Below are positions 2,069 to 11,412 of a DNA stretch of 64,000 bases, piece after piece (the stretch's first letter is position 1; every line of letters begins with the position of its first letter). Position numbers and translations under genes: made by a program. The stretch lies in NCBI RefSeq assembly GCF_057098645.1, contig NZ_CM169472.1, one strand, 5' to 3'. Under the pieces are notes generated by a model. It was not told where the DNA came from. It saw only the letters and a program-made list of their open reading frames with translations, and searched no databases.

Positions 2069-2854
2069 ATGAGTACAGCACTCGCAACGCTGGCTGGGAA
2101 GCTGGCTGAACGTGTCGGCATGGATTCTGTCGACCCACAGGAACTGATCACCACTCTTCGCCAGACGGCATTTAAAGGTGATGCCAGCGATGCGCAGTTC
2201 ATCGCATTGTTGATCGTCGCCAACCAGTACGGCCTTAATCCGTGGACGAAAGAAATTTACGCCTTCCCTGATAAGCAGAACGGCATCGTTCCGGTGGTGG
2301 GCGTTGATGGCTGGTCCCGCATCATCAATGAAAACCAGCAGTTTGATGGCATGGACTTTGAGCAGGACAATGAATCATGTACATGCAGGATTTACCGCAA
2401 GGACCGTAATCATCCGATCTGCGTTACCGAATGGATGGATGAATGCCGCCGCGAACCATTCAAAACCCGCGAAGGCAGAGAAATCACCGGACCGTGGCAG
2501 TCGCATCCCAAACGGATGTTACGGCATAAATCCATGATTCAGTGTGCCCGTCTCGCCTTCGGATTTGCTGGTATCTATGACAAGGATGAAGCCGAGCGCA
2601 TTGTCGAAAATACTGCATACACTGCAGAACGTCAGCTGGAACGCGACATCACTCCGGTTAACGATGAAACCATGCAGGAGATTAACACTCTGCTAATCGC
2701 CCTGGATAAAACATGGGATGACGACTTATTGCCGCTCTGTTCCCAGATATTTCGCCGCGACATTCGCGCATCGTCAGAACTGACACAGGCCGAAGCAGTG
2801 AAAGCTCTTGGATTCCTGAAACAGAAAGCCACTGAGCAGAAGGTGGCAGCATGA
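2069..2854 (+). CDS. bet: Bet (Red beta single-strand annealing protein)
   Basis: 261-aa translation [48 protein letters not shown]... recognised as lambda Bet. Confidence 0.92.
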
Positions 2855-3531
2855 CACCGGACATTATCCTGCAGCGTACCGGGATCGACGTGAGAGCTGT
2901 CGAACAGGGGGATGATGCATGGCACAAATTACGGCTCGGCGTCATCACCGCTTCAGAAGTTCACAACGTGATAGCAAAGCCCCGCTCAGGAAAGAAGTGG
3001 CCTGACATGAAAATGTCCTACTTCCACACCCTGCTGGCTGAGGTTTGCACCGGTGTGGCTCCGGAAGTTAATGCTAAGGCGCTGGCCTGGGGAAAACAGT
3101 ACGAGAACGACGCCAGAACCCTGTTTGAATTCACTTCCGGCGTGAATGTTACTGAATCCCCGATCATCTATCGCGACGAAAGTATGCGTACCGCCTGCTC
3201 TCCGGATGGATTATGCAGTGACGGCAACGGCCTTGAGCTGAAATGTCCGTTTACCTCCCGGGATTTCATGAAATTCCGGCTCGGTGGTTTCGAGGCCATA
3301 AAATCAGCTTACATGGCCCAGGTGCAATTCAGCATGTGGGTGACTCGAAAAGATGCCTGGTACTTTGCCAACTATGACCCGCGCATGAAGCGTGAAGGCC
3401 TGCATTATGTCGTGGTCGAGCGGGATGAAAAATACATGGCTGGTTTTGACGAGATGGTGCCGGAGTTCATCGAAAAAATGGACGAGGCACTGGCTGAAAT
3501 TGGTTTTGTATTTGGGGAGCAATGGCGATGA
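2851..3531 (+). CDS. exo: Exo (Red alpha 5'-3' exonuclease)
   Basis: 226-aa translation [40 protein letters not shown]... recognised as lambda Exo. Start overlaps the bet stop (ATGA). Confidence 0.92.
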
Positions 3532-3710
3532 AGCATCCTCACGATAATATCCGGGTAGGCGCGATCACTTTCGTCTACTCCGTTACAAAGCGAGGCTGGG
3601 TATTTCCCGGCCTTTCTGTTATCCGAAATCCGCTGAAAGCCCAGCGGCTGGCTGAGGAGATAAATAATAAACGAGGGGCTGTATGCACAAAGCATCTCCT
3701 GTTGAGTTAA
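3522..3710 (+). CDS. Small phage ORF (62 aa), lambda orf61/orf63/orf60a-region equivalent
   Basis: Start overlaps the exo 3' end. Position matches the small ORFs downstream of exo in lambda. No function known. Confidence 0.45.
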
Positions 3711-3874
3711 GAACGAGCATTGAGATTGCACATAGCCTTGCTCAAATTGGAGTCAGGTTTGTGCCAATACCAGTAGAAACAGACGAAGAATTTCATACGT
3801 TAGCCGCATCCCTTTCACAAAAGCTGGAAATGATGGTGGCGAAAGCAGAAGCAGATGAGAGAGACCAGGTATGA
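3683..3874 (+). CDS. Small phage ORF (63 aa)
   Basis: Overlaps the preceding ORF, which is typical phage gene packing. Acidic C-terminus. Confidence 0.45.
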   Translation: MHKASPVELRTSIEIAHSLAQIGVRFVPIPVETDEEFHTLAASLSQKLEMMVAKAEADERDQV

Positions 3875-3954
3875 CAACCACTGAATGCATTTTTCTGGCA
3901 GCGGGCTTCATATTCTGTGTGCTTATGCTTGCCGACATGGGACTTGTTCAATGA
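3871..3954 (+). CDS. Putative 27-aa hydrophobic micropeptide
   Basis: ATG at 3871 overlaps the upstream stop (ATGA). Translation MTTTECIFLAAGFIFCVLMLADMGLVQ is one predicted transmembrane helix. Its stop overlaps the next ATG (3951). Confidence 0.3.
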   Translation: MTTTECIFLAAGFIFCVLMLADMGLVQ

Positions 3955-4166
3955 CACCTCAGCAAGAAAACGCCCTTCGCAGTATTGCCCGTCAGGCTAA
4001 TTCTGAAATCAAAAAAGCCAGACAGCAGTTTCCGGATAAAAACGTCGATGACATTTGCCGTAGCGTACTGAAGAAGCACCGCGAAACGGTAACGCTGATG
4101 GGATTCACACCGACTCACTTAAGTCTGGCAATCGGTATGTTAAACGGCGTCTTTAAGGAACGGTGA
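3951..4166 (+). CDS. Small phage ORF (71 aa)
   Basis: Internal ATG of ORF 3885..4166, chosen because it is translationally coupled to the upstream micropeptide. Translation MTPQQENALRSIARQANSEIKKARQQF... Confidence 0.4.
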   Translation: MTPQQENALRSIARQANSEIKKARQQFPDKNVDDICRSVLKKHRETVTLMGFTPTHLSLAIGMLNGVFKER

Positions 4167-4264
4167 ACATGAAAAGCAAAATCATCAGGGAGCTACAGGC
4201 TCCTTTTTTATTATTCGCATTCACCCTCAAGCGTATTAACCAACAATTCAGGGATTAATGAAAG

Positions 4265-4486
4265 ATGGCAGATATCATTGATTCAGCATCAGAAATTGAA
4301 GAATTACAGCGCAATACAGCAATAAAAATGCGTCGCCTGAACTACCAGACTGTATCCGCAACTCATTGTTGTGAGTGTGGCGATCCGATAGATGAACGAA
4401 GACGCCTGGCAGTTCAGGGTTGTCGGACTTGTGCAAGTTGCCAGGAGGATCTGGAGCTTATCAGTAAACAGAGAGGTTCGAAGTGA
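4265..4486 (+). CDS. TraR/DksA-family C4 zinc-finger protein (lambda orf73-like)
   Basis: 73 aa with CxxC...CxxC (CCECGDPIDERRRLAVQGCRTCASC), the DksA/TraR zinc-ribbon signature. Confidence 0.7.
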   Translation: MADIIDSASEIEELQRNTAIKMRRLNYQTVSATHCCECGDPIDERRRLAVQGCRTCASCQEDLELISKQRGSK

Positions 4487-5169
4487 GCGAAATTAATTAT
4501 CAGGCACTGCGTGAAAAGGCAGAGAAAGCAACTAAAGGAAGCTACATCGTAGGGCATACATCTGTTAACCAGCACGGCAATTTAACAGGAGTTTTTGTTT
4601 GCCAAAAATGGAAAGGAGAACCCGGTGGTGTGATTGCGGAATGTCATGTTAACTGCCTGGTTGAAACAGATGTTCAGGCTTATGCAAACGCTGAATTTAT
4701 TGCTGCTTTTAATCCAAATGTTGCGCTGGCACTACTGGATGAACGGGAAAGAAACCAGCAATACATCAAACGCCGCGACCAGGAGAACGAGGAGATTGCG
4801 CTTACGGTTGGGAAGCTGCGCGTTGAGCTGGAAGCCGCAGAGAAGCGCAACGCAAAATTACAAAGCGAGAATGCATACATCCGCAACCGGTACAAAGAAC
4901 TGGACCTGTTAATCGGGAAAAACATTCTGGTCATGCAGGCTGCCATTATCGAATGGCAATCGACTGGCGACGCTAAAAGCGGACTGGCATGGATTTATAA
5001 CACACTGTTTGGCCCAGGCGAATTGCCGGACGAATCTGAGAAAGATGCTCAGGCCTACTTTAATCGCAAATATGCACCGATTGACGAAAAGCTTATGGCG
5101 CTTCACAAGTGGTTTTGGGAACAAAGTGAAGCCGAGCGCGCCGCTGGCATTTGCATCAAAGGAGAGTGA
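4483..5169 (+). CDS. Ea22-like coiled-coil accessory protein (228 aa)
   Basis: Central heptad-rich segment (ALTVGKLRVELEAAEKRNAKLQSENAYIRNRYKELD). Position between exo and xis as for lambda ea22. Function unknown. Confidence 0.5.
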   Translation: MSEINYQALREKAEKATKGSYIVGHTSVNQHGNLTGVFVCQKWKGEPGGVIAECHVNCLVETDVQAYANAEFIAAFNPNVALALLDERERNQQYIKRRDQENEEIALTVGKLRVELEAAEKRNAKLQSENAYIRNRYKELDLLIGKNILVMQAAIIEWQSTGDAKSGLAWIYNTLFGPGELPDESEKDAQAYFNRKYAPIDEKLMALHKWFWEQSEAERAAGICIKGE

Positions 5170-5170
5170 T

Positions 5171-5674
5171 ATGACCACTATTACCAAAGAGCGACTACTG
5201 ACAATCAAGCAGTGGCGCGAAACATACGGACCTGGTAGCAACGTTGTACTGCCAGCAGAAGAAGCGGAAGAACTGGCACGAATTGCTCTGGCATCGCTGG
5301 AAGCAAAACCAATAGCGTGGGAATGCGGCGAAAACATAATCCTGTTTAATCCTGACACAGTTGAAGCATACGCAAAACGTGCGGAGATATCACCTAAACC
5401 ACTATATGCCGCGCCGCCAGTTCCGGTAACTCCGGATGGTTGGATAAGCTGTAGTGAGCAAATGCCAGAAATGGGAGAGCGACAATGCTATGTGTTAGCG
5501 GCTGACTTTAAAAACAACTACCCGCCAAACATCCCCAACACTCAGGTCGGCGTATATGGCGACTGGTTTAATGATGGCAATCCCACTTGGGATGACGGTG
5601 ATGGCGAAGACCTGTATCTCAAAGAGGTAACCCACTGGATGCCGCTACCGGAACCGCCGCAGGAGGTGAAGTGA
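5171..5674 (+). CDS. DUF551-like phage protein (167 aa)
   Basis: Internal ATG at 5171 immediately after the Ea22-like stop, preceded by AAAGGAGAG. C-terminal W/D/G-rich region (GDWFNDGNPTWDDGDGEDLYLKEVTHWMPLP) resembles DUF551 proteins common in prophage accessory regions. Confidence 0.55.
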   Translation: MTTITKERLLTIKQWRETYGPGSNVVLPAEEAEELARIALASLEAKPIAWECGENIILFNPDTVEAYAKRAEISPKPLYAAPPVPVTPDGWISCSEQMPEMGERQCYVLAADFKNNYPPNIPNTQVGVYGDWFNDGNPTWDDGDGEDLYLKEVTHWMPLPEPPQEVK

Positions 5675-5757
5675 TGAATTGGCCTGAAGCATTCACCGCT
5701 GTAGGAGTTGCAATAGCGGTGGCATTTATTCTGTATTCGCTTTTCCGCTGGGGATAA
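5674..5757 (+). CDS. Putative 27-aa hydrophobic micropeptide
   Basis: ATG overlaps the upstream TGA (5672..5674), with AGGAGGTGA RBS. Translation MNWPEAFTAVGVAIAVAFILYSLFRWG is one predicted transmembrane helix. Confidence 0.3.
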   Translation: MNWPEAFTAVGVAIAVAFILYSLFRWG

Positions 5758-5761
5758 AGGA

Positions 5762-6004
5762 ATGTTCGCTCTGATTCAACGTGGTCAGATATACACCGAT
5801 AGCGCCGGCTATCCGATAAAAATTCTTCGCTGCATAAACAACACTGTGTTGTACAGAAGAATGGATGGGCGAACACAGTCGGTAAAAATAAACGATTTTA
5901 ATGAACTGTTTGAACGGATTGATCACCAGGAATACCGACAAATTCTGGCAGAAACAGAGCAGGAAGCTCATCTGAAAAAATTACGAGCCATGAAAAGGAA
6001 GTAA
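5762..6004 (+). CDS. Hypothetical phage protein (80 aa)
   Basis: ORF begins 5 nt after the micropeptide stop, same operon orientation. No family recognised. Confidence 0.45.
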   Translation: MFALIQRGQIYTDSAGYPIKILRCINNTVLYRRMDGRTQSVKINDFNELFERIDHQEYRQILAETEQEAHLKKLRAMKRK

Positions 6005-6007
6005 AGA

Positions 6008-6142
6008 ATGAATAAAGCATTTGAACGATGGGTCCACCAGCGTTACGGCAATCGCTATGACCTGACGCGAGGTGGTGACGGTTTCTACTGTCGTGAAGTT
6101 GTGAAGCGAATGTTTGAAGTGTGGTGCCACTGCCGTGGATGA
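6008..6142 (+). CDS. Putative 44-aa Cys/His-rich small protein
   Basis: ATG 4 nt after the preceding stop. Translation MNKAFERWVHQRYGNRYDLTRGGDGFYCREVVKRMFEVWCHCRG. Not in the supplied ORF track, which has a 60-aa cut-off. Confidence 0.3.
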   Translation: MNKAFERWVHQRYGNRYDLTRGGDGFYCREVVKRMFEVWCHCRG

Positions 6143-6160
6143 AAATTTTATGAGGTTGGC

Positions 6161-6415
6161 ATGCAGACAATCATCTATCAGATAACCCCCAGCAAATGGT
6201 GTACGGAGAGAGTCCTCATTGCATCAACAGGGCTAAAGCCTGGCACCATCGAGCGAGCCAGAAGAAAGTCATGGATGCAGGGAAAAGAATACCGCCATTA
6301 CGCTGTAGAAGGTGATCCGGGGCATTACAGTGAATGCCTGTACAACATCGAAGAAATTATGCGATGGATCGAAAACCAGAAACAACCAGGTGCCAAAAAT
6401 GCAAGTTCCGGTTAA
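6161..6415 (+). CDS. xis: Excisionase-like DNA-binding protein
   Basis: 84-aa basic protein immediately upstream of int, as expected for a phage Xis. Assignment is by position and composition, not by strong sequence recognition. Confidence 0.5.
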   Translation: MQTIIYQITPSKWCTERVLIASTGLKPGTIERARRKSWMQGKEYRHYAVEGDPGHYSECLYNIEEIMRWIENQKQPGAKNASSG

Positions 6416-6448
6416 CCTGTTAATGCTCCTGGACGTCTGGGAGGTTTT

Positions 6449-7735
6449 ATGAGTAACGCATCATACCCGACAGGCGTTGAAAACCATGGAGGATCACTCC
6501 GTATATGGTTTCACTATAATGGCAAACGTGTCAGAGAAAACCTCGGTGTTCCTGACACCGCCAAAAACCGGAAGATCGCTGGTGAGCTTCGCACTTCTGT
6601 TTGTTTTGCAATCAGAATGGGGAGTTTCGACTACGCCGCGCAGTTCCCTAATTCCCCTAACCTGAAACACTTTGGTCTGGGAAAAAGAGAGATAACCGTT
6701 AAGGCACTTTCGGAAAAATGGTTGGACCTTAAGAAAATTGAGATTTGTACGAATGCACTTAACCGTTACCAGTCAGTAATTAAAAACATGTTACCAATGT
6801 TAGGTGAAAAAAAACTGGTTTCATCCATAACAAAAGAGGATTTACTTTTCGTAAGGAGAGATTTGTTGACCGGTTACCAAAAGCTTTCTAATGGAAAGAC
6901 TTCTTCCATAAAAGGGCGCTCAGTGGTCACGGTAAACTACTATATGACAACCATAGCTGGAATGTTTCAATTTGCAACAGATAATGGTTATACCTCAGGA
7001 AACCCATTTAACGGTCTGGCTCCCTTAAAAAAGTCCAAGGTAAAACCAGATCCTCTCACCCGTGACGAATTTATTCGTTTTATTGAGGCTTGCCGTCATC
7101 AACAAACAAAAAACCTGTGGATTCTCGCTGTATACACGGGTATTCGTCACGGGGAGTTGGTATCGCTGGCATGGGAAGATATAGACCTTAAAGCAAGGAC
7201 TATAACCATCCGTAGAAATTATACAAAACTTGGCGAATTCACTCCACCAAAAACCGATGCTGGCACCGGAAGGACAATTCATCTGGTTCAACCAGCTATT
7301 GATGCTCTTAAAAGCCAAGCGGAAATGACCATGCTTGGAAAGCAACATTCTGTAGAGGTAAAGCAGAGGGAATATGGGAGAACTGCTGTGCATAAATGTA
7401 CTTTTGTTTTTAGCCCTCAGGTAATAAAACAGCAGCTGTTGTCTGGACCTCACTACAAAGTTGACTCCATCAGGGAGTCATGGACAAGTATCTTAAAACG
7501 CGCAGGTCTGAGACACAGAAAATCGTACCAATCCAGGCATACTTATGCATGCTGGTCACTTGCCGCTGGAGCTAATCCTAGTTTTATCGCAAGCCAGATG
7601 GGCCACACAAACGCACAAATGGTATTCAATGTTTACGGAGCATGGATGAAAGACAACAATCACGAACAGATAGAACTCCTTAACAAAAGACTATCTGAAA
7701 GTGTCCCATGTATGCCCCATAAGAAAGTGGGGTAA
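6449..7735 (+). CDS. int: Phage integrase, tyrosine recombinase family
   Basis: 428 aa. C-terminal catalytic region with conserved Arg/His and terminal Tyr (RHTYACW...GHTNAQMVFNVYGAW). Last phage gene before the host junction. Confidence 0.9.
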   Translation: MSNASYPTGVENHGGSLRIWFHYNGKRVRENLGVPDTAKNRKIAGELRTSVCFAIRMGSFDYAAQFPNSPNLKHFGLGKREITVKALSEKWLDLKKIEICTNALNRYQSVIKNMLPMLGEKKLVSSITKEDLLFVRRDLLTGYQKLSNGKTSSIKGRSVVTVNYYMTTIAGMFQFATDNGYTSGNPFNGLAPLKKSKVKPDPLTRDEFIRFIEACRHQQTKNLWILAVYTGIRHGELVSLAWEDIDLKARTITIRRNYTKLGEFTPPKTDAGTGRTIHLVQPAIDALKSQAEMTMLGKQHSVEVKQREYGRTAVHKCTFVFSPQVIKQQLLSGPHYKVDSIRESWTSILKRAGLRHRKSYQSRHTYACWSLAAGANPSFIASQMGHTNAQMVFNVYGAWMKDNNHEQIELLNKRLSESVPCMPHKKVG

Positions 7736-7773
7736 AATAAAAACTTGTAAAATCAGTTAGTTTACCCTTAATC

Positions 7774-8373
7774 CCTGTCACGTTACGCGCGTGGCAGAGG
7801 CGTTACGGATTGCTGAAACCGCAACGGACAGACGGCGGTCATCGGCTGTTCAACGATGCCGATATTGACCGGATCCGCGAGATCAAACGCTGGATCGACA
7901 ACGGCGTGCAGGTCAGCAAAGTTAAAATGCTGCTCAGTAATGAAAATGTTGATGTGCAGAACGGCTGGCGCGATCAGCAAGAAACATTACTGACTTACCT
8001 GCAAAGCGGCAATCTACATAGCCTGCGAACGTGGATCAAAGAGCGCGGTCAGGATTACCCCGCCCAGACACTCACCACACATCTGTTTATTCCTCTGCGC
8101 CGACGGCTTCAGTGCCAACAACCGACTCTCCAGGCGCTGCTGGCGATCCTCGACGGCGTACTGATCAACTACATCGCCATTTGTCTGGCTTCGGCACGTA
8201 AAAAACAGGGTAAAGATGCGCTGGTGGTTGGCTGGAATATTCAGGATACCACCCGTCTGTGGCTGGAGGGCTGGATTGCCAGTCAACAAGGATGGCGCAT
8301 TGATGTCCTCGCCCACTCGCTCAATCAACTACGCCCTGAACTATTCGAAGGCCGTACATTGCTGGTGCGGTGA
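7774..8373 (+). pseudogene. mlrA: mlrA (yehV) MerR-family curli regulator, 3' fragment lacking N-terminal HTH codons
   Basis: In-frame translation from about 7774 reads PVTLRAWQRRYGLLKPQRTDGGHRLFNDADIDRIREIKRW..., which matches MlrA from roughly residue 17 onward. Upstream sequence is phage (int). The ORF-track start at 7810 is a TTG. Confidence 0.8.
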
Positions 8374-8511
8374 AAATCGAACCTCCGCCCAACAGCAGCA
8401 ACTCACCAGTTGGCAAGAACAAGGCCATGATATTTTCCCACTCGGCATTTAATGATTCGTTAACAAATGCGCTTTACTGTACAATCCTTTCGTTAACATA
8501 AGGAGTGCATT

Positions 8512-9335: not shown

Positions 9336-10262
9336 TTACGCCTCCACCAGCAGATCCTGAAAATGCAGCGTGCCGCAAGGCTGGCCCTGCATGTTCACCA
9401 CCGGCAGCACCTCGCATCCCCGCGCAACAAACAGAGAGAGCGCATCGCGTAGCGTCATCTCTTCTGCCAGTGCCTCACCATCTGCTCGTTCTTCGCGACG
9501 CACGTAATCCGCCACACTACGTAACGAAAGCAGGCGCACACCCAGTTCACTACGTCCAAAAAACTGGCGGACAAAATCATTCGCCGGACGAGTCAGCATC
9601 GTCAGCGGATTGCCCTGCTGCACTACTTCACCGTGATCCATCAATACCAGATGTTCTGCCATCCGTAGCGCCTCATCAATATCATGAGTGACCAGCACAA
9701 TGGTACGCCCCAGCAAACGGTGAATGCGCGTCATCTCTTGTTGCAACGCGCCGCGCGTTACCGGGTCCAGTGCGCCAAAAGGTTCATCCATTAGTAAGAC
9801 TTGCGGATCGGCAGCCAGTGCACGCGCCACTCCCACACGTTGCTGCTGACCACCGGAAAGCTGATGCGGATAACGCTCACGCAAATTTGACTCCAGCCCC
9901 AGTAGCGCCATTAATTCGTCGATACGATCGTCAATCCGCGCCCGCGACCATTTTTGTAATTGCGGCACGGTAGCGATGTTTTGCGCCACGCTCCAGTGGG
10001 GGAACAGGCCAATAGATTGAATGGCATAGCCCATCCGGCGGCGCAACTCCAGTACTGGCAGCGAGCGAATTTCTTCTCCGGCAAAGCGGATCTCTCCGCT
10101 GTCATGCTCCACCAGGCGGTTAATCATTTTCAGGGTGGTGGATTTGCCGGAGCCAGATGTGCCAATCAGCACCGAAAAACTCCCTTCCTGAAAATTGAGA
10201 TTGAGATCGTTAACGGCTTTTTGTGCGCCGAACAGTTTGCTGACATGGCTAAATTCAATCAT
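9336..10262 (-). CDS. yehX: Osmoprotectant ABC transporter ATP-binding protein
   Basis: Walker [10 protein letters not shown] and ABC signature LSGGQQQRV in the translation. Confidence 0.88.
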
Positions 10263-11412
10263 TACGTTTCACCTTCAGCAGTGCGATAAGCAAATCGAAC
10301 AGCGCGTCGGTAAGCACCGCCAGAACAATTACCGGGATCACCCCCAGCAACACTAAATCAATGGCGCTGCTTAGCAGCCCCTGGAAAACCAGCGCACCAA
10401 AACCGCCTGCGCCGATTAACGCCGCAATCACCGCCATACCTACAGTTTGCACCATCACCACCCGCAGGCTGCGCAGAAATACCGGTAACGCCAGCGGTAA
10501 CTGAACATGCAGGAAACGCTGCGCCCCGCTCATCCCCATCGCTCTGGCGCTTTCCAGCACATCGCGCGGGATCTGGTTCAAACCGACTACCACGCCGCGC
10601 ACCAGCGGCAGCAAGGCATAGAGCACCAGCGCAATCAGTGCGGGTGTCATTCCGGTTCCTGCTATGCCGAGCGTCCCCAGCCACGGAAAGGCCGTAACCA
10701 GCGCGGCAAGCGGCGCAATCAACAGGCCAAAGAGCGCCACCGAAGGCACGGTCTGAATCACATTGAGCAGAGAAAAAATTGCCCCCTGCCGAGCAGTGGA
10801 AAAGTAGCACCAGATGCCCAACGGCACACCAATCACTAACGCAGGCAGCACCGCACCAAACAGCAACGTCAGATGTTGTGCCAGCGCGTCGTCAAACACA
10901 TCCTGACGGTTGGCGTATTCTTTCATTAGTGAGAGATCGTTAAGCGTGCCGGAGTACAGCAACCACAGCGGAATAATGGCAATCTGCATATGCAACAACC
11001 AGCGCCACAGCGGATGCGTGGAGATTCGGCGGATGGCATCGCTACAGGCCAGCAATGCCAGCGCCGCAGCCAGCCAGAAACCACTGCCGAGGCTGGTACG
11101 CGCCAGCGCACTGCCATTTTGCGCCAGTTGGGTCGCCGCCTTTCCAGCTCCCCACACCAGCAATACGAAGACGAATTGCGCCAGAATGAGTGCACAAATG
11201 CTGCCTTTTTTACCGGGAATAAAACAGGCCGTCAGCCAGGCGCAACCAACGCCCACCAGCATCCAGATCGTTTGCGGCCACAGCTGCCAGAGATGACGCC
11301 CCTCACCCGAAACTAAACGATTAGGCGCGTAACTGATAAACGGCAGCGCCGCTGCGATTGCCGTCAGCAACAGCAGCAGCGCCAGAACAGGATTAATACG
11401 GAAATAAGTCAC
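10255..11412 (-). CDS. yehY: Osmoprotectant ABC transporter permease
   Basis: 385-aa polytopic membrane protein between the ATPase and the binding protein. Confidence 0.85.

Follow-up and report, generated by a model that had tools for sequence, protein, structure and literature searches.

A coupled membrane-micropeptide gene, very probably genuine, next to Ea22- and DUF551-family genes in the exo-xis region of an Escherichia coli lambdoid prophage

The leftward early genes of lambdoid phages belong to the pL operon, which is expressed with N antitermination after infection or induction. In phages of enterohemorrhagic Escherichia coli (EHEC), the exo-xis region of this operon influences the lysis-lysogeny decision and hence the release of Shiga toxin (Stx). 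Here, we describe a three-gene cassette from this region in a lambdoid prophage of E. coli, contained in a stretch of 64,000 nucleotides of contig NZ_CM169472.1 (RefSeq assembly GCF_057098645.1), to which we refer as the window. The cassette consists of a gene of the Ead/Ea22 family, an EaA/DUF551 gene, and an open reading frame (ORF) of 27 codons, MNWPEAFTAVGVAIAVAFILYSLFRWG. A preliminary description made from the DNA letters had already placed the three ORFs exactly where the ORF list and the raw sequence have them. The point it did not see, and our main subject, is that the shortest of them belongs to a conserved, mobile, and mostly unannotated family of peptide genes.

Several relatives of the two larger proteins have been studied. 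Deletion of ea22 in lambda and phi24B shortens latency, enlarges the burst, and lowers host survival (PMC7093339), and a tetrameric state and a role favoring lysogeny and survival have been shown only for the lambda, phi24B, and P27 proteins (PMC7093339, PMC10834534). The structure of the C-terminal domain of lambda Ea22 has been solved by nuclear magnetic resonance (PMC10834534), an acidic C-terminal domain has been reported for all Ea22 variants, and both an inserted segment and the variability of the C terminus have been described for the Ea22 proteins of Stx phages (PMC7093339, PMC10834534). Regarding DUF551, the multicopy inhibition of replication initiation in E. coli K-12 requires the DUF551 protein YfdS (or YfdT) together with YfdQ and the DnaA-binding HD-domain protein YfdR; yfdS mutants are sensitive to H2O2, and phenotypes are known for both overexpression and deletion of YfdS (PMC4776307). 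The preliminary statement that none of the three proteins has an assigned function is therefore only partly correct, given the deletion phenotypes of ea22 and the phenotypes of YfdS. No biochemical function could be assigned.

The 27-aa ORF had been described as a coupled peptide of the transmembrane type, and this was borne out. The peptide has a 19-residue core with a mean Kyte-Doolittle hydropathy of 2.3, and its ATG shares the A with the TGA of the preceding 167-aa gene (TGATG), with GGAGG located 7 nt ahead of the ATG at 5674. This coupling is a property of the whole family: the start overlaps the upstream stop (as ATGA or TGATG) in 105 of 114 non-redundant contexts and is preceded by GGAGGTGA. 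The gene upstream usually codes for a DUF551 protein, but it can also be what remains of a truncated DUF551 gene or code for an EaA-type protein devoid of DUF551. The family can be summarized by the motif M-[NST]-W-P-[ED]-A-(hydrophobic x18)-R-W-[GR].

Upstream of DUF4222 genes, 80 IMG/VR loci carried two alleles, MNWPEAFTAVGVAIAVAFILYSLFRWG and MSWPDAIVTLGMVFAVAFVVYSICRWG, which differ at 26 of 84 nt. Both of these main alleles have 27 codons and the same ends, with nonsynonymous (dN) and synonymous (dS) divergences of 0.29 and 1.07, respectively (dN/dS ~0.28). A wider sample, obtained with a degenerate pattern scan of IMG/VR plus tblastn over all the fetched loci, yielded 175 intact occurrences comprising 33 nucleotide alleles and 23 peptide variants; only two further copies were frameshifted, and one carried an in-frame deletion (25 aa). 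Variable positions of the core exchange only hydrophobic or small residues, the variable sites are distributed as 16, 13, and 22 over the first, second, and third codon positions (the third being the most variable), and within the central 18 codons the proportion of nonsynonymous differences (pN) was lower than that of synonymous ones (pS) in 98.7% of the allele pairs, with a median pN/pS of 0.47. Length and frame are kept across diverged alleles and the peptide is under purifying selection, the pattern of a protein-coding sequence. Judged from these sequence patterns, the 27-aa ORF is very probably a real gene that codes for a single-pass membrane peptide.

In spite of this conservation, the gene is largely missing from annotation, both in the reference Stx phages and in the ~9% of complete E. 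coli genomes that have the window allele (484 of 5,426), where RefSeq annotates only the overlapping upstream gene. A tblastn search of a phage collection found the peptide in 88 records, and in the four that were inspected (VT1-Sakai, BP-4795, PhiR12, and 933W) the ORF has no coding sequence (CDS) assigned. In VT1-Sakai, it lies directly after H0068, and there is no annotated CDS between H0068 and xis. Phage 933W has a second cassette at its right end (NC_000924, 57332-60409, reverse complement, 1-1950 of that piece), in which a DksA/TraR-like gene is followed by an Ea22-DUF551 fusion (L0140), a 156-aa ORF, the peptide MTWPEAFANVGTVMAVVLVVYSICRWR, and hokW/sokW. The peptide also occurs, at 70% identity, in the virulent rV5-like phages vB_EcoM_TH18 and Av-05, where it overlaps the stop of the EaA gene. 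In a collection of ~15 billion proteins, the exact peptide was found in a four-member cluster of "hypothetical proteins," and the second allele was absent. Since the micropeptide has gone unannotated, deletion studies of the exo-xis region may have removed it unknowingly.

The TH18 locus (ON075799 26435-29515, 971-1584) codes for an "EaA" protein that has the N-terminal module of its window counterpart but no DUF551, and the stop of this gene is overlapped by the unannotated peptide MTWPEAFTTVGVVMAVAFAVYSVCRWG.

The domain searches proposed in the preliminary description returned Pfam families for the two larger proteins and none for the peptide. The latter matched no family in PHROG, NCBIfam, or Pfam (a Pfam search with the padded peptide gave only noise), and its string was not found in the literature searched. 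We regard as new the recognition of a family of conserved, coupled micropeptides that accompanies EaA/DUF551 genes in both temperate and virulent phages and is essentially absent from annotation.

Small membrane peptides of similar appearance include the type I toxins TisB, DinQ, ZorO, and Hok and the regulators AcrZ, MgtS, KdpF, and YohP. The window peptide resembles them in its short length (27 residues), its single hydrophobic helix, and the presence of a charged residue close to the C terminus. However, it has no similarity to the families catalogued in PHROG, NCBIfam, and Pfam and carries a motif of its own (M-x-W-P-[ED]-A ... R-W-G), and it is coupled inside a phage early operon, whereas type I toxins are stand-alone genes with an antisense RNA. 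The acidic N terminus and the basic C-terminal R-W-G suggest, by the positive-inside rule, an N-out/C-in topology. A lipoprotein was considered and discarded, given the lack of a lipobox and the phenylalanine that the window allele has in place of the cysteine. The peptide would be a single-pass inner-membrane protein, synthesized by ribosomes that have just finished translating the EaA/DUF551 gene, and its output would follow that of the DUF551 protein. It probably targets a host envelope protein or affects the integrity of the membrane soon after infection or induction. Taking this further, the peptide may found an undescribed family of small phage membrane proteins whose genes move together with EaA/DUF551-type genes, as coupled pairs, among temperate lambdoid phages (including the Stx phages 933W, VT1-Sakai, and BP-4795) and virulent rV5-like phages, and it may have a specific host target in the envelope through which it affects the early development of the phage or the physiology of the lysogen; we hold this complete proposal only tentatively, at somewhat short of even chances.

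The gene preceding the peptide had been described as coding for a W/D/G-rich, DUF551-like protein, and this assignment proved sound: residues 90-164 match Pfam PF04448 (IPR007539) with E=4.9e-20 over model positions 1-68 of 68. The domain (residues 90-167) contains 4 W, 7 D, 7 G, and 9 P in 78 residues, with an isoelectric point (pI) of 4.05 and a net charge of -10. The whole protein is very acidic as well (pI 4.4), and its AlphaFold2 model has a mean predicted local distance difference test (pLDDT) score of 74. The family is large, with more than 7,900 close matches in one search and 1,615 representatives (50% identity clusters) at E<=0.001, and the gene is an ordinary, already-named member of it (RefSeq "DUF551 domain-containing protein," WP_000208043.1, identical to the window protein). 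The DUF551 domains of 933W L0140, P22 EaA, and E. coli YfdS share with it WISCSE.MP at the start and HWMPLPEPPQEV at the end, and genes of the L0140/EaA type frequently have the 27-aa peptide gene behind them.

The alignment reveals a mosaic of three parts, i.e., an N-module of ~47 residues (residues 1-50; MTTITKERLLTIKQWRETYGPGSNVVLPAEEAEELARIALASLEA), a hypervariable middle, and the DUF551 domain. This is the organization of EaA-type proteins, with the conserved N-module MTTITKERLLTIKQWRETYG...ARIALASLEA followed by the variable middle. Each part has its own closest relative: residues 1-50 are 88% identical to EaA of the virulent Vequintavirinae phage TH18, the N-terminal 98 residues (middle included) are 53% identical to VT1-Sakai H0067, and residues 85-167 are 95% identical to BP-4795 ORF5. 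By contrast, identity to the DUF551 regions of 933W L0065, 933W L0140, and VT1-Sakai H0068 is only 35-43%. In the window, DUF551 is part of a separate polypeptide with its own EaA-type N-module, whereas 933W L0140 joins the Ea22 N terminus, coiled coil, and DUF551 in one polypeptide, with DUF551 as its C terminus. PHROG 60 matches both larger window proteins in consecutive parts of its profile. Among the homologs, there are also PF04447+PF04448 fusions, in which DUF551 is joined to DUF550/MazZ-like deoxynucleoside triphosphate (dNTP) pyrophosphohydrolases. Considering that DUF551 is fused either to the Ea22 scaffold or to MazZ-like enzymes and that YfdS works genetically with YfdR, it seems most likely that the DUF551 protein would be a partner-binding adaptor directed at host replication or nucleotide metabolism, acting in the same pathway as Ea22.

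The first gene of the cassette codes for a true Ead/Ea22 family member on sequence grounds, as the preliminary description had surmised. Residues 2-130 match Pfam PF13935 (IPR025153; E=7.4e-35) over model positions 1-122 of 139, and RefSeq carries the identical protein as "ead/Ea22-like family protein" (WP_001289950.1). The central coiled coil was also recovered, since AlphaFold2 predicts a single helix (residues 78-161) in whose best heptad register 62% of the a/d positions are hydrophobic. Around it, the model (pLDDT 69) places an N-terminal helix, three weak strands at 21-26, 36-43, and 51-57 (low pLDDT, 52-59), and a helical C terminus of modest confidence. With a model of low pLDDT in the N-terminal and C-terminal domains, Foldseek retrieved nothing from the PDB at E<=0.001; sequence searches of both larger proteins against all PDB chains gave only coiled-coil noise (E<=1 for Ea22). 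NCBIfam had no match for any of the three cassette proteins, for Ea22 not even at E<=10.

The N terminus was the one feature that the preliminary description misread, as it was considered unlike that of lambda Ea22. Actually, at 13 of its first 16 positions it has the residue of the lambda protein (NP_040612), which also shares the GTG start, the terminal IKGE, the location between exo and xis, and the coiled-coil core (65.6% identity over a local alignment of 61 residues, with the stretch LLDERERNQQYIKRRDQENE.IALTVGKLRVELE nearly unchanged). The unfamiliar appearance is due to an insert of ~47 residues (window residues ~18-65) that lambda Ea22 does not have, and not to a different N terminus. 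The C-terminal domains, however, are unrelated: that of lambda (residues 102-182) is mixed alpha/beta, and the BLASTP alignment ends at window residue 132, past which there is no similarity.

The closest characterized relatives are 933W L0069 (257 aa) and BP-4795 ORF7 (256 aa), each 84% identical over the full length. They have the same N-terminal helix, beta-rich insert, coiled-coil core, C-terminal domain, and ...IKGE tail, and their genes occupy the same position after the orf73/TraR gene. In the full-length alignment, the only large difference is one in-frame gap in the coiled coil, where the window protein lacks 28 residues, NNLIDSECHVAELEEALRDKQALLEASE. Since this is a whole number of heptads (exactly four), the register of the coiled coil is preserved. 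The long form and the 228-aa form are both common in E. coli and in the databases. This four-heptad length polymorphism is new here; otherwise, the Ea22-like gene is an ordinary one that already has a name. L0069 and BP-4795 ORF7 appear to represent the "Ea22_V1" class (Tariq et al. 2024, PMC10834534). This assignment is our own: 933W has a V1 and a V2 Ea22, and the DUF551 signature by which V2 is defined is found in its other Ea22, L0140. By homology, Ea22 would oligomerize, probably as a tetramer, into a coiled-coil scaffold from which an acidic and exchangeable C-terminal domain is presented to a partner. Extrapolating from lambda and phi24B ea22, the protein encoded here would slow lytic development and favor host survival and lysogeny.

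Stand-alone proteins of 125-132 aa that correspond to the L0069-type C-terminal module of Ea22 were found in Rac-like Citrobacter prophages, in the nin region after the replication genes (10001-10399 of the four fetched loci L209-L212). This C-terminal module is thus portable and is used also in the rightward early operon.

The ends of the two larger proteins deserve attention. A terminal R/K-G-E was noted by Dydecka et al. in all Ea22 proteins, its "significance unknown" (PMC7093339). In the window, the DNA of this tail, ...ATC AAA GGA GAG TGA, includes AGGAG, 6 nt ahead of the ATG at 5171, which is 1 base past the Ea22 stop. The same geometry is widespread, given that an ORF of 30 aa or more begins with an ATG exactly 1 nt past the stop in 35 of 43 non-redundant Ea22-tail contexts, with at least eight different downstream genes. 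Similarly, the codons of the DUF551 tail P-P-Q-E-V-K/N-Q hold the ribosome-binding site (RBS) of the peptide. The ...IKGE* and ...PPQEV[K/NQ]* tails would thus be kept because their codons serve as the RBS and splice point of the next module, and modules could therefore recombine without breaking translational coupling. This nucleic-acid explanation of the R/K-G-E motif, as an RBS and a module joint, is new here, and the IKGE tail may have an additional role at the protein level.

The preliminary description had also proposed that exo-xis cassettes are shuffled between lambdoid phages, and the data agree. Pieces of the cassette were found in 3,050 of the 5,426 complete E. coli genomes, as well as in 411 phage records, but the full combination was found in only 15 genomes, so the modules are ubiquitous and this particular arrangement is rare. 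The 1,275-bp cassette is identical in six complete E. coli genomes, including O55:H7 USDA5905. Among the Ea22 homologs at the fetched loci, at least three kinds of N-terminal region are combined with at least 10 C-terminal domains. Within this shuffling, Ea22, DUF551, and the peptide recur fused or adjacent, at varied genome positions and in varied types of phage, which argues for treating them as a single functional unit in future studies. These findings do not overturn current understanding: the two large genes are ordinary, and the shuffling of the region is well documented.

The cassette would accordingly consist of three translationally coupled genes of the N-dependent leftward early (pL) operon, and we expect them to be expressed from pL, under N antitermination, once infection or induction has taken place, because the genes are co-oriented and tightly coupled, promoter- and terminator-like sites inside the cassette are no more frequent than in shuffled sequence, and no Rfam RNA family was found within 3400-6600. 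We favor, with moderate confidence, the explanation that combines coupled pL genes, an Ea22 scaffold, a DUF551 adaptor, a membrane peptide, and tails acting as joints. Several points weigh against it. The effect of the phi24B ea22 deletion on lysogenization depended on the multiplicity of infection and was not simply pro-lysogenic (PMC7093339), and in lambda the IKGE tail is present although no coupled ORF follows it. The conservation of the peptide termini is overstated because the alleles were found in part with a pattern that fixes both of them, and the sequences of related prophages are not independent. Finally, the peptide was not found in the supplementary tables of the ribosome profiling (Ribo-seq) study of small genes in Sakai, although pL genes are repressed in uninduced lysogens.

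Two other interpretations concern the peptide. The 27-codon ORF might not code for a functional protein but be conserved DNA or RNA, young shared DNA, or a relay that passes ribosomes from DUF551 to DUF4222. Its stop in the window is indeed 4 nt ahead of the DUF4222 ATG, with AGGA in between, many copies are nearly identical (95-100% for the window allele in the 484 genomes), and gene callers and PGAP skip an ORF that has no catalogued family. Nonetheless, alleles whose proteins are only ~50-70% identical keep the 27 codons, the start, the stop, and the hydrophobic core, the third codon positions vary most and synonymous changes predominate, and the ORF is also found where there is no DUF4222 to be relayed to, namely, by hok/sok in 933W, before terminator-like or other sequences in IMG/VR loci, and in virulent phages, all of which makes this interpretation unlikely. 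We give about the same low weight to a membrane-damaging toxin (type I or Kil-like) used for host shutoff, abortive infection, or superinfection exclusion independently of DUF551. Size and hydrophobicity are those of TisB, DinQ, ShoB, ZorO, and Hok-type peptides, the early operon is the one that contains kil, and in 933W the peptide gene is directly upstream of hokW/sokW. However, while the peptide is small and hydrophobic as type I toxins are, neither an antisense RNA (among catalogued Rfam families) nor a dedicated promoter above chance was detected, and the lack of a long leader and the nearly constant coupling to the preceding gene are unlike known type I toxins.

A defense or counter-defense module, in which the Ea22 C terminus would be related to DpdH and the acidic DUF551 would be a DNA mimic or an inhibitor of host immunity, is the least probable alternative, and we regard it as highly doubtful. 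It originates in the PADLOC profile PDLC02890 ("DpdH"), which matches Ea22 residues 117-215 (window 4831-5127) with E=1.2e-36 and also 933W L0069, and it could draw on the strong negative charge of DUF551 and on its fusions to MazZ-like enzymes. Yet the profile spans only 127 positions, whereas canonical DpdH/I is a large BrxC-like factor (bioRxiv 10.1101/2025.09.15.676423), NCBIfam gives no support, and the stand-alone Citrobacter homologs are in the nin region with no dpd genes within 10 kb. Neither the DUF551 protein nor the peptide has a PADLOC match, and PDLC02890 matches neither lambda Ea22 nor the DUF551-bearing 933W L0140. We thus discarded membership of the Ea22 C terminus in DpdH (of the 7-deazaguanine Dpd restriction system), the PADLOC label being most likely a mislabel or a contaminant with prophage protein.

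The features of the locus are listed in Table 1. The window begins inside the prophage, which is inserted at mlrA/yehV, with its leftward early genes on the + strand, and beyond int lie the host genes mlrA (yehV), yohO, and yehW/X/Y. The placement of Ea22 after orf60a/orf63/orf61/orf73 in the exo-xis region is the same in the window, the identical RefSeq locus, BP-4795, 933W, and lambda, and the order TraR-Ea22 recurs at the right end of 933W. The orf73 product is a TraR/DksA family regulator in RefSeq naming, and the TGA of its gene overlaps the GTG start of Ea22 (GTGA). In BP-4795, the order downstream is also the same (DUF4222, the 44-aa gene, xis, and int). The 27-aa ORF is left without annotation at the identical RefSeq locus.

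Table 1. Features of the exo-xis region and its surroundings in the window
Feature	Position	Strand	Evidence or remark
bet	2069-2854	+	ORF list, RefSeq identical locus
exo	2851-3531	+	ORF list, RefSeq identical locus
orf60a, orf63, orf61-like	in this order between exo and orf73/TraR	+	
orf73/TraR-DksA-type C4 zinc-finger protein, 73 aa	4265..4486	+	PHROG 54 E=6e-26; TIGR02419 E=8e-15
Ead/Ea22-family gene, 228 aa, GTG start	4483..5169	+	
Ea22 N-terminal inserted segment, ~residues 18-77, three predicted beta strands and a helix	4534..4713	+	BLASTP gap versus lambda Ea22
Ea22 coiled-coil helix, residues 78-161	4714..4965	+	AlphaFold2 single helix; pLDDT >90 for ~80-125
Ea22 variable C-terminal domain, ~residues 162-222, helical, pI 4.9, 933W L0069 kind	4966..5151	+	
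Junction: Ea22 tail codons I-K-G-E-stop, containing AGGAG (5160-5164) for ATG 5171	5152..5173	+	Sequence
EaA/DUF551 gene, 167 aa, ATG start	5171..5674	+	
Junction GGAGGTGAAGTGATG: last DUF551 codons E-V-K-stop hold the RBS and overlap the peptide ATG	5662..5676	+	Sequence
27-aa peptide ORF, ATG start, MNWPEAFTAVGVAIAVAFILYSLFRWG	5674..5757	+	
DUF4222 protein gene	5762-6004	+	PHROG 285 / PHROG 3871 matches for downstream neighbors, RefSeq annotation
44-aa protein gene	6008-6142	+	PHROG 285 / PHROG 3871 matches for downstream neighbors, RefSeq annotation
xis	6161-6415	+	Same operon
int	6449-7735	+	Same operon

Other ORFs that overlap the cassette were rejected as genes. The antisense ORFs 4909-5358 (-) and 5619-5876 (-) belong to no family, and the + frame opposite them has strong Pfam and RefSeq support. 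The ORFs 4680-4946 (-) and 4634-4912 (+), inside ea22, match the tiny PHROGs 13760 and 27631 where the + frame of ea22 again has Pfam and RefSeq support; these two PHROGs probably derive from miscalled ORFs over the highly conserved DNA of the coiled coil.

Between the orf61-like gene and orf73/TraR, a hairpin followed by a T-run resembles a terminator (4187-4205, +). Such a site would put orf73, ea22, the DUF551 gene, the peptide gene, xis, and int under N antitermination.

A further hydrophobic ORF of 27 aa, MTTTECIFLAAGFIFCVLMLADMGLVQ, is located at 3871-3954 (+). Its ATG overlaps the orf63 stop (ATGA), and its TGA overlaps the ATG at 3951, which is the RefSeq start of the 71-aa orf61-like CDS; it conflicts with the longer call of 93 aa (3885-4166) used in 933W L0070 and BP-4795 ORF9. 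It has no PHROG match and is nearly unchanged in 35 IMG/VR loci, a variation too small for a coding test. The preliminary description had referred to the peptide after DUF551 as a second coupled micropeptide, and the ORF at 3871-3954 is presumably the first.

At its int end, the prophage adjoins mlrA (yehV) at 7736-8460 (+), a gene for a curli and biofilm regulator. At the identical RefSeq locus, a 233-aa MlrA ORF starts ~20 nt past int (equivalent to window 7756-8457), and therefore the insertion altered or replaced the 5' end of mlrA.

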